Below are positions 13,551 through 57,070 of a stretch of DNA of 64,000 bases, in pieces (the first letter of the stretch is position 1; each line of letters starts with the position of its first letter). Below the pieces are notes generated by a model, which made no database searches, was not told the origin of the DNA, and saw only the letters and a list, made by a program, of their open reading frames with translations. Source of the stretch: Escherichia phage UE-S1; the sequence record ON568341.1; one strand, 5' to 3'. The translations under genes and the position numbers were made by a program.

Positions 13551-14405
13551 ATGAAACTTTATCTAATAGTTGACTATAATAAGGATTATGCTGGTAACTT
13601 CACCGAAGATTCGGATGGATATTGCACATCGACTAATGTCAATGTACGTAGCAGTAGTGCTCATGAACATGAATCTTGTAAAAATCTAAAAGATTTTATC
13701 ACATACCGAGCATTTGAAAAGAACTTCTGCCGCAGTAGATATTCTAAGTTTGAGTACCCATTAATTGATGTTCCTGATGAATTGATGTTCCAGCTAATGT
13801 TAACTGGAGTTCAAGATTATGATTATATTGCTTATAATCACATAACAAAGAAGATTTACATTGGAACATCAGTACACGATACTTCCATGTATGCATCATG
13901 CCCAGATGATCGAATGAAGCATAGAAATTCATACTATAGTGGATCAGTTGGTTCAAATAATTCATCAAATAAAAATTCATTCTTTGAGTACGTGTATGAT
14001 TACCATCACGAGAAAAAAGAACGTGAAGATTACTGTATAGAGATTGATAGTACTAATGGATATGAAGACGTAAAAGAAGCTCTTATGCCATACATTATAG
14101 AAAAATACTACAAAGATTTTCAGTACTGTAGTAATTTTCTAATCAGAAATTCTATTCAAATCGGTCGTCAATCCACTGCATACGCTATGTACTACAGTGA
14201 TTCTCCAGTTGTAGCAGGAAATGAAAGGGGTGATATCCTACCAATTCCACGTGAAGATATGACATTCATTTTTACATCTTTTATTGAGGATGATGAATTG
14301 TACGTTAAAAATAAGCATCGTTTCATGCCAAGTAAAATTGAGATTATTAGAAGCATCAGTGTTGATATATTAACCAATTTTACTGAAAAAACTGAATATA
14401 ACTGA
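13551..14405 (+). CDS. family-1-related protein with C-terminal extension
   Basis: 284 aa; GGAG RBS; VPDELMFQLML motif in N-terminal third. Confidence 0.6.
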   Translation: MKLYLIVDYNKDYAGNFTEDSDGYCTSTNVNVRSSSAHEHESCKNLKDFITYRAFEKNFCRSRYSKFEYPLIDVPDELMFQLMLTGVQDYDYIAYNHITKKIYIGTSVHDTSMYASCPDDRMKHRNSYYSGSVGSNNSSNKNSFFEYVYDYHHEKKEREDYCIEIDSTNGYEDVKEALMPYIIEKYYKDFQYCSNFLIRNSIQIGRQSTAYAMYYSDSPVVAGNERGDILPIPREDMTFIFTSFIEDDELYVKNKHRFMPSKIEIIRSISVDILTNFTEKTEYN

Positions 14406-14422
14406 GACAAAATAGAAGTTAA

Positions 14423-14463
14423 TGATATAATGTGAGGTGACAGTATATACTGTCACCTTTTTT
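14423..14463 (+). promoter_or_regulatory. TGATATAAT element followed by terminator hairpin
   Basis: TGATATAAT at 14423-14431; hairpin GGTGACAGTATATACTGTCACC plus T6. Confidence 0.45.
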
Positions 14464-14469
14464 AATCCT

Positions 14470-15136
14470 GAAAGGTTCCTATAAGGAAATGATTAAAAGC
14501 CTAATCCACTCGAAAATGTAGAGGGTAGATGAGTAGTCCTTTCAGTACGAACAGCAGAAGAAACCCGTCAGATGTGGGCATAGTTTGAACCCCTCACGGC
14601 AATGCGGCTCAGAAGAAACCCGTCAGATGTGGGCATAGTTTGAACCCCTCACGGCAATGCGGCTGTATAAAGAACTCCAATAGGATAAAGAGAGTTCCTC
14701 GATAGACATATAAGGATCGCACCTTACCAATTATCTAAGGGAGATTTCATAAGAAATATGCGGTCGGAATTATACAATATAGTTGCGTCCAAATTTTGTG
14801 AAATCAAATACAAGTACTGGTCATATGGTATTTGTATTATGTGTCGGGATGTTTAAGACCGACGACCGTTGCTACAAGAACCGCGATAGAGAGAAACAGA
14901 GCAACCCGCTTTCGTCTCGTAAGAGAATTCGTGATATGAACTATGTGAAGGCCACCAGCGTCAAACTTTTTTGTTCTTTCCCCTGCGGGGGGATGAAATA
15001 TGCTCAAGCAAACCTCGTCAATATTAATTAAAAGACTTTATAATACTTGTAGAATTGTACATGCACCGCATGGAGAATTCTACTGATGTTGATGTAATCA
15101 ACATCACGTATATTCATTGATGTTTCCATAGGAATA
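14470..15136. other. GC-elevated non-coding island, candidate structured RNA or cis element
   Basis: About 0.7 kb without a credible RBS-led ORF; visibly higher GC than flanks; several short hairpins (CCCCTGCGGGGGG; GATGTTGA..TCAACATC). Confidence 0.3.
14555..14664. repeat. perfect 55-bp direct tandem repeat, 2 copies
   Basis: CAGAAGAAACCCGTCAGATGTGGGCATAGTTTGAACCCCTCACGGCAATGCGGCT at 14555-14609 and again at 14610-14664. Confidence 0.9.
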
Positions 15137-15682
15137 ATGATGGCATTTATTAAAAAAGAAAAAACTATTACTTATAAAACTTTGAATTTTGATGATTGTA
15201 TTAATCAATCACAGGACGAAAATATTTTTACTGGATATGTGGTTATTAAAGAAAAAGGATGCATTTCTTATATAAAGGAATTGCAAAATGGCATTGAAGT
15301 CACTTCAGTTAAATTACTTCCTACACAAAAACCAACAATATCAAAAGCCCAGTACGGTAATTATTTCGAGGAAAGATACAGTAATAATTTAATAAGTGTT
15401 AAAGCTCATATTGTAAAAGGAGAACTAGAAGGAGAATATAGAAAATTCAACCCACAAGGAAAATGTGTTTGGGTTAAATACTACAATTCAGGTGTTGACA
15501 TAACATCTGAAATTATTGAGTTTTTAGGATTGACATGTACACCTGAAACTCTTCATGACTACAAATTTAATACTGAAGAAGAGTTTAATCTGATGATGCG
15601 TTATGGATCACATTTTAAATTTTTATATGAATATAACGTTGACAGTAGTATTTTTGATAAAATAGTACATAATTGTCTATAA
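15137..15682 (+). CDS. hypothetical protein
   Basis: 181 aa ORF. Confidence 0.55.
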   Translation: MMAFIKKEKTITYKTLNFDDCINQSQDENIFTGYVVIKEKGCISYIKELQNGIEVTSVKLLPTQKPTISKAQYGNYFEERYSNNLISVKAHIVKGELEGEYRKFNPQGKCVWVKYYNSGVDITSEIIEFLGLTCTPETLHDYKFNTEEEFNLMMRYGSHFKFLYEYNVDSSIFDKIVHNCL

Positions 15683-56744: not shown

Positions 56745-57070
56745 TGGATTTAAAGCCAATTGTGGTTAACAAATACAAAGAACCGTATGATGTGTACATT
56801 GGTCGTGGGTCTAAATGGGGTAACCCATTTACCCATATCAATGATAAACAGACGAAAGCCGAGTTCATTGTTGCTACAAGGGAAGAATCAATCGAAAAGT
56901 TCAGAGAATACATAATTGAACGTATTTCTAATGGCGAAGTTAAAATTGATGATTTACTTGAATTAGCAGGGAAACGTCTTGGTTGTTTCTGTAAACCAAA
57001 ATCATGTCATGGTGATGTTCTCGTTGAAATAGTGAGTGCAATACTAGATGAATTACCAGACGATAATTAA
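56744..57070 (+). CDS. DUF4326-like protein
   Basis: Track ORF 56741; ATG overlaps upstream stop; KWGNPF ... CFCKP..CHGDVL pattern. Confidence 0.5.
   Translation: MDLKPIVVNKYKEPYDVYIGRGSKWGNPFTHINDKQTKAEFIVATREESIEKFREYIIERISNGEVKIDDLLELAGKRLGCFCKPKSCHGDVLVEIVSAILDELPDDN

Follow-up and report, generated by a model that had tools for sequence, protein, structure and literature searches.

Large and intricately folded RNAs are rare, and most of those with a known function (rRNA, RNase P RNA, group I and group II introns and transfer-messenger RNA, or tmRNA) are parts of central machinery. GOLLD, ROOL, OLE and raiA, which run to several hundred nucleotides (nt) with many helices and pseudoknots and are often borne by phages or prophages, have no known function (PMC12286853, PMC7567579); these few orphans are under active study. 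Here we describe an element from Escherichia phage UE-S1 (sequence record ON568341.1; the 64,000-nt stretch analyzed is called the window throughout), in which a gap between two genes very probably holds one member of a gene family for a structured noncoding RNA of about 0.5 kb, read from the + strand, as judged by the comparison of homologous sequences. Like GOLLD, ROOL, OLE and raiA, this is a noncoding RNA of several hundred nt, with many helices and pseudoknots and long invariant stretches, that was found comparatively. Unlike them, it has no match in Rfam 15, occurs in four to five gene copies per genome and has no tRNA gene in this window; its range as seen so far also differs, comprising RaK2-like jumbo phages of Enterobacterales, one Xanthomonas phage and enterobacterial islands.

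Three further kinds of phage and plasmid RNA invite comparison. Phage T4 has at least five early origins with transcript primers, one of them made from an early promoter; these origins are about 100 bp long and consist of a promoter and an AT-rich unwinding element with no common motif, and plasmids with a T4 origin, or with mere homology to T4, are replicated as concatemers during infection (PMC3016281). With the R-loop RNAs of oriF, oriG and oriE and with ColE1 RNA II, the element shares a promoter of its own and a lack of coding capacity, and T4-type genomes also have several origins each; unlike the T4 origins, its copies are homologous pseudoknotted RNAs of 500 nt. ColE1 RNA II is about 550 nt long and requires correct folding. 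The group I introns of T4-like phages (td, nrdB, nrdD) are likewise GC-elevated, pseudoknotted and about 0.25-1 kb long in AT-rich T4-type genomes, but the element is not located within a gene, has its own promoter and an apparently different order of helices, and in one copy lies between opposite-strand genes. Finally, the abundant transcripts seen in phage transcriptomes, namely the RNA of about 800 nt in ICP1 and ncRNA001-004 of PA5oct (a phage distantly related to the RaK2 group), resemble it in coming from intergenic stretches of large lytic phages that lack open reading frames (ORFs).

A conserved structured RNA in a noncoding gap

The gap lies between an ORF of 284 amino acids (aa) at 13551-14405 and one of 181 aa at 15137-15682. 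These coordinates agree with those of the initial annotation of the window, which had pointed to a GC-elevated island with no credible ORF, several hairpins and an exact tandem duplication, and had proposed that it encodes a structured RNA such as a tRNA, an intron remnant or a small RNA, or else a cis element such as an origin or recombination site. The longest ORF within the gap is indeed an 82-aa frame with a TTG start (14783-15031). At 0.408 over 14470-15136 and 0.423 over 14476-15031, GC content exceeds the mean of the window, 0.330 (standard deviation 0.032 for 556-nt windows), and 14476-15031 ranks first among the 1269 windows of this size. Three hairpins were located, at 14434-14459 (followed by a T-run), 15049-15083 and 15084-15106, and ARAGORN reports no tRNA or tmRNA across the whole window; the initial annotation had seen no canonical tRNA T-arm. 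The conserved element spans about 14476-15031 and is slightly narrower than the gap as first noted, with a predicted promoter directly upstream at 14404-14431.

Over the surrounding 6 kb, identity to 121Q, phAPEC6, PBECO4 and similar jumbo coliphages of Asteriusvirus is about 93%. By blastn, the intergenic stretch itself is matched in 61-70 phage records at 68-96% identity over 14497-15031, from phages of Escherichia, Salmonella, Klebsiella, Erwinia, Yersinia, Serratia, Pectobacterium, Cronobacter and Xanthomonas. Identity is 84-96% in the relatives infecting E. coli and Salmonella. Over the same span it is 68-77% in Mimasvirus (GAP32, CBB) and Eneladusvirus (Serratia BF, Yersinia fHe-Yen9-04, Erwinia pEa_SNUABM), as well as in Salmonella 7t3/Munch, Klebsiella fENko-Kae01, Erwinia Kaldavass and Xanthomonas XbC2; ten more Klebsiella phage records match and are not itemized here. 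At least four genera of RaK2-like jumbo phages have full-length homologs at this position. The interval carries no annotation in 121Q, CBB and BF, and elsewhere it bears scattered ORFs of 30-70 aa on either strand.

These genomes hold the element several times over. Matches by blastn fall in four to five places per genome, the best one in GAP32 being non-syntenic. Copies were counted with an nhmmer profile after IMG/VR had been scanned with two patterns; most of the 120 genome-contig matches and 18 IMG/VR matches to a 17-base pattern are chance matches. Full-length copies of about 470-570 nt number four in 121Q and CBB, at least four in GAP32 and five in Serratia BF and fHe-Yen9-04, and uncultivated genomes of 355-371 kb mostly have four to five, with only two recovered in one of them. 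The paralogs of one genome are always co-oriented. Within the 64-kb window, neither blastn at word size 7 nor nhmmer finds a second copy, the nhmmer matches being 14489-14610 and 14610-15029. The window copy, copy A, precedes the 181-aa gene, a Dam methylase and a cytidylyltransferase, a synteny kept across genera. Copy B follows the gp47-gp46-EndoVII genes and in 121Q and GAP32 is flanked by opposite-strand genes, which points to a transcription unit of its own; copy C has two small plus-strand genes on either side. In Eneladusvirus-type genomes (L068:6897-7730, L050, L061), an ADP-ribosylglycohydrolase gene lies directly downstream of one paralog.

None of 41 homologs has a conserved or spanning ORF: the longest stop-free stretches reach 45-103 aa, in varying strands and frames, and the alignment contains indels of 1, 2 and 4 nt, none of them a multiple of three. 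The GGGGGGAUGAAA...UAA frame was considered as the source of a small peptide and discarded, since indels of 1-4 nt break it among the copies.

The copies do share a fold. RNAalifold predicts 70 pairs from 27 copies, 41 of which show compensatory double changes, and mutual information with the average product correction (APC) over 40 non-redundant copies recovers the same helices together with four crossing pairings, that is, pseudoknots. One joins the loop of a 13-bp hairpin to a strand about 110 nt downstream through six pairs, all covarying; another pairs GUUGC with GCAAC inside the loop of a GAGAG/CUUUC hairpin; a third pairs the AUG of the internal junction of helix P4 with a CAU within GAUAGACAUAU; and the fourth pairs a hairpin loop with the strand immediately 5' of an invariant UAAGGGA. 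The resulting model of 88 pairs in 19 helices, four of them pseudoknotted, was scored on a fresh MAFFT alignment of 38 non-redundant copies with a mean column identity of 58%. Standard pairs occupy 97.4% of its 3319 cells, as against 37-43% when the 3' partner is slid by one to three columns. Double-sided changes occur at 59 of the 88 pairs (579 cells), and not one of 500 shuffles reaches any of the five measures used. In 18 independent metagenomic copies, all less than 95% identical to any training sequence and some only 64-78%, 94.5% of pairs are kept (37-44% in slid controls), and 247 of 251 cells are paired in three of the four pseudoknotted helices.

G-U pairs are frequent: columns 381-388 read GU in 36 of the 38 copies, columns 379-390 read UG in 28 and CG in 10, and another pair is GU in 29. 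Such cells would be A-C mismatches on the opposite strand, which argues that the + strand is the one that folds. Long runs of nucleotides in the junctions and loops are invariant. The earlier suggestion of a structured RNA thus stands through the covariation, the four pseudoknots and the lack of a conserved ORF, while its named candidates (tRNA, intron remnant, small RNA) do not. Of the three findings that, according to the initial annotation, would together speak against it, only the negative scans of Rfam and for tRNAs came true; a predicted promoter is present, and the homologous phages have no conserved gene across the interval.

Architecture of the predicted RNA

The fold would comprise a 5' hairpin domain, helix P4 around P5, and then some ten helices with the four pseudoknots. 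In window coordinates, its parts are as follows.

14476-14488, + strand: 5' hairpin H0, UUCC-UAUAA-GGAA; a hairpin of 4-6 bp with unrelated or covarying stems stands at the same place in most of the 38 copies.
14497-15031, + strand: structured RNA core, about 480 nt without the extra 55-mer (blastn, nhmmer, covariation).
14502-14527, + strand: hairpin Ha, 7 pairs, loop GAAAAUGUA (helix 1; all 7 pairs double-changed).
14530-14532, + strand: 5' strand UGA of P1, partner UCA at 15018-15020; a possible closing helix (RNAalifold; helix 2, pairs invariant, covariation neutral).
14533-14548, + strand: hairpin Hb (helix 3; second pair UA, AU or CG).
14551-14666, + strand: P4, ACAGC 14551-14555 with GCUGU 14662-14666, surrounding both 55-mers (helix 4; 3 of 5 pairs double-changed).
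14555-14609, + strand: 55-mer copy 1, with AGAAGAAAC, P5 (CCGU 14565-14568 with ACGG 14596-14599), CA, AUG 14602-14604, CG and the start of the P4 3' strand.
14610-14664, + strand: 55-mer copy 2, with P5 14620-14623 paired to 14651-14654 and AUG 14657-14659; missing from all relatives.
14672-14697, + strand: hairpin He, whose loop GGA 14683-14685 pairs with UCU 14734-14736 as pseudoknot B (helices 7-9; mutual information).
14707-14709, + strand: CAU, 3' strand of pseudoknot A, partner AUG 14602-14604 or 14657-14659 (helix 6; GC 28, AU 10).
14711-14726, + strand: hairpin Hf, UAAG...CUUA, followed by the invariant UAAGGGA 14736-14742 (helix 10; invariant columns).
14743-14805, + strand: helix Hg, 14743-14745 with 14803-14805, around a variable module with UACAAUAUAGUUGCGUCCAAAUUUUG (helix 11).
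14807-14838, + strand: 13-bp hairpin Hh, whose loop 14820-14825 pairs with 14935-14940 as pseudoknot C (helices 12 and 13; 6 of 6 pseudoknot pairs double-changed).
14842-14864, + strand: hairpin Hi (helix 14).
14868-14940, + strand: 3' domain (helices 13 and 15-18).
14868-14872 with 14901-14905, + strand, in the 3' domain: pseudoknot D, GUUGC with GCAAC.
14882-14886 with 14929-14933, + strand, in the 3' domain: Hj.
14889-14893 with 14909-14913, + strand, in the 3' domain: Hk.
14916-14918 with 14923-14925, + strand, in the 3' domain: Hl.
14979-14992, + strand: hairpin UCCCC-UGCG-GGGGG, followed by a conserved GAUGAAA ... CAAACCUCGUCA tail (helix 19).

The only substitutions in helix 19 are those that exchange C-G and U-G, as expected if the RNA is read from the + strand. 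One conserved module, roughly 27 nt long (UACAAUAUAGAUCCGUCCAAAAUUUG or GUACAAUGAAGUUGUAUCUAAAAUUCA), lies inside Hg in some paralogs (14746-14802 in the window) and inside Hl elsewhere: it occupies the Hl loop in L068, L050, L061, L008 and L059, the last of which has it in both places. This relocation resembles the swapping of peripheral tertiary-contact elements in large ribozymes.

Transcription signals and RNA ends

Three signals on the + strand bear on the expression of the element.

14404-14431, + strand: predicted sigma-70-type promoter, with a -35-like GAGACA (14404-14409), a 16-nt spacer and an extended -10 TGaTATAAT (14423-14431); 10 of 12 matches plus the TG.
14434-14465, + strand: terminator of the upstream gene (13551-14405), an 11-bp hairpin with a T-run that begins 3 nt past the -10 (terminator scan, inverted repeat).
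15015-15044, + strand: second promoter-like site, TCGTCA-18-TATAAT, over the 3' end of the RNA (consensus match only).

A TGnTATAAT stands upstream of every copy examined for one, whether ortholog, paralog or the copy in island L117. Transcription is predicted to start at about 14438-14440. Host sigma-70 RNA polymerase would initiate at the extended -10 with no phage factors, and synthesis of the RNA would then begin within minutes of infection. The start would lie within the 5' arm of the terminator, which would block incoming transcription and leave the RNA's own transcript unaffected. Terminators with unrelated stem sequences follow the -10 by 3-6 nt at copy A of 121Q, CBB, BF, 7t3, Kaldavass and Yen9-04 (L001, L003-L007), and we infer that the overlap of terminator and promoter insulates the RNA gene from read-through. 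The RNA is predicted to end near CGUCAGUA or, in paralogs B-D, at an internal hairpin and U-run. The site at 15015-15044 probably drives gene 15137-15682.

In many paralogs, and partly in the islands, a conserved motif GTRTTNAACRTA with a second, TGAATTGAG, about 11 nt further on lies 20-45 nt past the 3' end of the RNA (L002:2010-2050, L028, L068, L008; island L117:3395-3425). GTRTTNAACRTA, which does not follow the window copy, is similar to a "-35" element, TGAAACG, reported for CBB and GAP32. It was rejected as a general phage promoter, the window having a single match, at chance level.

Copies in bacterial islands

The family extends to bacterial chromosomes. When 5426 complete E. coli genomes were searched for distant matches by blastn, a full-length copy (396 bits by nhmmer) turned up in two chromosomes. 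The copy of E. coli LR-29-1 lies in an island adjoining ffs (L069:1-12426), with an integrase disrupted by an insertion sequence and the candidate defense genes PDC-M45A/C. Scans of GTDB genomes and JGI metagenomes added about ten chromosomal copies, and the hosts comprise E. coli, Buttiauxella and other Enterobacteriaceae (loci L069, L117, L186, L199, L202, L210, L214, L218, L220, L241 and L248). The islands are small and share a layout of integrase (of the tyrosine type or, in L202, a large serine recombinase), RNA gene, membrane protein of 260-330 aa, LprI-family protein, resolvase and a variable cargo of candidate defense genes that includes PDC-M45, PDC-S73 and a Cap4-like nuclease with an SMC-like ATPase. 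In one subtype, a winged-helix protein and a divergent CI-like S24 repressor are present as well. The 8-14 kb of island sequence inspected showed no gene for replication, capsid or terminase.

The RNA of the Buttiauxella island is closest to paralog B of the uncultivated jumbo phage L017, which points to a fairly recent transfer between phage and island. No protein beside the RNA is shared by islands and phage; the matches to the ADP-ribosylglycohydrolase and to DUF4326 are not linked to the RNA in both. One of these, at 56786-57049 of the window, resembles the DUF4326/mSLOG protein of an island (L069:8883-9476) by tblastx, with 45-67% aa identity over segments of 42 and 15 aa, and is not adjacent to the RNA. 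Searches of Pfam, PHROGs, NCBIfam and PADLOC gave no function for two flanking phage proteins or for the island membrane protein. Such islands could accompany jumbo phages as satellites or hitchhikers, or they could be defense islands in which the RNA serves as a decoy. They could also gain from the element with no function of the RNA whatever: for recombination-dependent replication, 500 bp homologous to a phage sequence present in several copies could be enough.

What the RNA may do

We lean, by a narrow preponderance of probability, towards an early, trans-acting folded RNA as the explanation of the whole. The chances that its three-dimensional fold lets it work in trans, be it as a scaffold that binds proteins, a decoy or a ribozyme-like molecule, appear evenly balanced. 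The four to five genes would supply dosage for an RNA needed in quantity. The neighbors differ from locus to locus and are sometimes antisense, which argues against regulation of a neighbor in cis.

Several observations weigh against this explanation. The terminator scan found no terminator after the core in the window, which leaves the 3' end undefined and makes read-through into gene 15137 possible. About half of the paralogs have a terminator-like hairpin with U7 about 70 nt before the conserved 3' end; it occurs in classes B-D and in the E. coli island copy (L002:1930-1965, L069:6340-6375; alignment columns about 570-605), whereas the window copy is merely U-rich at 14960-14978. If that hairpin does terminate transcription, the conserved tail (CCCCUGCGGGGGGAUGAAA...CUCGUCA) lies outside the same RNA and the closing helix P1, whose pairs are invariant, is wrong. 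The energy of the single-sequence fold is unremarkable (z = -0.75 for the + strand and +0.94 for the - strand) and is uninformative, so the case rests on covariation. Pairing the 5' leader with the conserved motif downstream of the 3' end as a terminal helix gives -5.46 kcal/mol, no better than the -5.43 of shuffled sequences. Our literature search found no transcriptome of a RaK2-like enterobacterial phage, and transcription is here predicted from promoters; in PA5oct, the only relative with a transcriptome, ncRNA001 and ncRNA002 are not homologous to the RNA family (no nhmmer similarity). Lastly, the trans-acting mode is reached by exclusion, and the dispersed, co-oriented copies, the copy beside gp46/gp47/EndoVII and the copies in islands with no replication genes seen would all fit an origin element equally well.

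That origin element is the main rival, unlikely overall but a serious one. On this account, which follows T4 and ColE1 RNA II, an R-loop formed near the 3' end of the transcript would prime leading-strand synthesis at each copy, and an infecting jumbo phage would replicate islands with one copy and go on to package them as concatemers. The RaK2-like phages are distantly related to T4 and have gp46/47, EndoVII, RNase H and UvsW-type functions. Each genome has four to five dispersed copies in the same orientation, with a host-type promoter in each copy examined, and one paralog sits beside recombination genes at a strand-switch region. In the islands the element adjoins the integrase, in 8-14 kb with neither replication nor capsid genes seen, and a T4-type origin would explain the single copy per minimal island. 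A conserved G-run also follows a U-rich stretch near the 3' end, presumably reminiscent of the G-run of ColE1 RNA II. Yet an RNA of 500 nt with four pseudoknots and many invariant unpaired nucleotides is under far more constraint than R-loop primers are known to require, and the cumulative GC skew shows no inflection at 14.5 kb.

It is much less probable that the element is the cis-acting leader of an early transcript, a processive antiterminator or a translational or processing control of gene 15137 onward, the Dam methylase and the cytidylyltransferase. No terminator separates the RNA from gene 15137-15682, the downstream genes are syntenic across genera, and the RNA of island L202 is co-directional with the downstream membrane-protein gene. 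On the other side, the EndoVII-adjacent paralog precedes opposite-strand genes in 121Q and GAP32, in islands L117 and L186 the RNA and the repressor gene are convergent, and the genes downstream differ with each paralog. The known cis antiterminator RNAs are, moreover, several-fold smaller.

We regard as very improbable a DNA-level element with no RNA function, in which the DNA itself would form the hairpins at a site for packaging, recombination or single-strand initiation. In favor of it, the noncoding copies are dispersed and share one orientation, one lies beside recombination genes, and G-T pairs are tolerable in the stems of single-stranded DNA; however, four compensated pseudoknots with invariant junctions bespeak a folded single strand with tertiary structure, and a promoter points into every copy examined for one.

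Comparison with known RNA classes

A cmscan run with permissive filters against all 4227 families of Rfam 15 (including Intron_gpI, RNase P, tmRNA, GOLLD, ROOL, OLE, HEARO and 6S) gave no credible match for the window or for the 11 phage loci and two island loci also scanned; the best match within the element is to the snoRNA sn2417, with 15.3 bits against a gathering threshold of 80. The least credible alternative of all is a decayed protein gene or an RNA that belongs to, or is left over from, a known class (group I intron, tRNA or tmRNA, RNase P RNA, GOLLD/ROOL type). The size, raised GC content and pseudoknots in a T4-like phage do recall group I introns, but the Rfam and ARAGORN scans are negative, the element is not inside a gene, its pairing order appears to be different and no ORF is conserved.

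A group I intron was rejected specifically: the genes on either side of the element are both complete and conserved separately, the paralogs lie between unrelated genes (one set of them on the opposite strand), and the element has its own promoter and gives no Intron_gpI match. Its four pseudoknots are loop-to-strand pairings in what appears to be a strand order other than P3-P7. A short GAUAGAC...AUAUA string bears some similarity to the T4 td intron. By covariation, the UUCAAUC string of hairpin Hb is not within a 5-bp T-stem. Also set aside were a hammerhead-like CAGAUGAG...CGAA, an ACAGAGCAACCCGCUU like CR-V of RNase P, and T-loop-like strings, all of which, on inspection, differ from the respective consensus at positions that are probably conserved and have no support in Rfam. 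PubMed Central, bioRxiv and the CBB genome paper yielded no description of the RNA, and a catalog of viral structured-RNA candidates, whose motifs are at most 151 nt long, could hold fragments of it.

The 55-bp duplication

The initial annotation had made its headline of an exact direct repeat of 2 x 55 bp at 14555-14664. The repeat is real: Tandem Repeats Finder, a second repeat finder and direct string comparison all give a 55-nt unit in 2.0 copies (14555-14609 and 14610-14664) at 100% identity with a score of 220, and an exact tandem repeat of 110 nt cannot be due to chance. It is nevertheless secondary, all relatives being single-copy. The unit consists of the last base of the 5' strand of P4, AGAAGAAAC, P5, CA-AUG-CG and the first three bases of the 3' strand of P4, the AUG being the 5' strand of pseudoknot A. 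The extra copy is a second P5 module inserted inside P4, which is retained in the minimum-free-energy fold of 14549-14670.

The earlier question of whether related phages carry one or two copies has a uniform answer. Their matches are about 55 nt shorter than the query, with a clean 55-column alignment gap and one 55-mer each; a 70-nt query across the junction matches them only as two overlapping pieces within 57 nt; and none of 2.9 million IMG/VR contigs contains a 25-nt junction string. L212 and L216, the metagenomic contigs most like the window, have a single 55-mer. None of more than 100 other copies of the family shows the duplication, not even relatives that are 95-96% identical here, and it is therefore private to the UE-S1 genome. 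It is either recent or an assembly artifact, and is incidental to the element, not defining.

That it arose in assembly or sequencing is rather improbable. The repeat is perfectly exact and missing from all other family copies searched; against this, its endpoints still allow P4 to close, as expected of a tolerated variant, and we know of no assembler behavior that yields so short an exact tandem duplication. A tandem-repeat RNA array of the ToxI or CRISPR kind was rejected, there being only two units, and one in every relative. Tandem duplication of a noncoding RNA unit in a phage genome has a precedent in the expanded pseudo-ToxI repeats of PhiTE, which mimic a type III toxin-antitoxin system and appear in single isolates; unlike there, the unit here is an internal hairpin of a far larger RNA, in two copies, with no ToxN-type partner and no evidence of selection.

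The 55-mer of the window has a G-C pair where the syntenic 121Q ortholog has U-A. In a comparison of 14555-14609 with 121Q 326737-326793, it is 97-98.6% identical (GUGGG...CCCC) to the EndoVII-adjacent paralog B of 121Q-type phages, and the syntenic copy of 121Q (GAUGG...CCAC) is less like it. This could reflect a compensatory change or gene conversion between paralogs. AGAAGAAAC (14556-14564 and 14611-14619), doubled by the duplication, is an (ARN)3 string, which we speculatively take to be of the type bound by the distal face of Hfq.

Implications

More than 80% of jumbo-phage genomes is still unannotated. The RNA now allows annotation of gaps of about 0.6 kb that are blank, or filled with spurious ORFs of 30-70 aa, in dozens of GenBank records. 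It represents a new family of large structured RNA outside all catalogued classes and, with 19 helices and four pseudoknots, is as complex as the orphans OLE, GOLLD, ROOL and raiA. Its presence in cultivable E. coli phages (among them 121Q, PBECO4 and phAPEC6) and in a sequenced E. coli strain makes genetics, structure probing and cryo-electron microscopy feasible. Tentatively, and with less confidence than in the early trans-acting RNA as such, we propose that this new class may be a working part of the infection machinery, either a ribozyme or ribonucleoprotein core or a primer that specifies origins, and that the islands bearing it may be the first satellites, hitchhikers or RNA-decoy defenses directed at jumbo phages, exploiting or jamming that machinery. 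The co-orientation of its multiple copies and its capture by integrative defense islands point to a part in phage-host or phage-satellite conflict or in replication, either of which would be new for jumbo phages.

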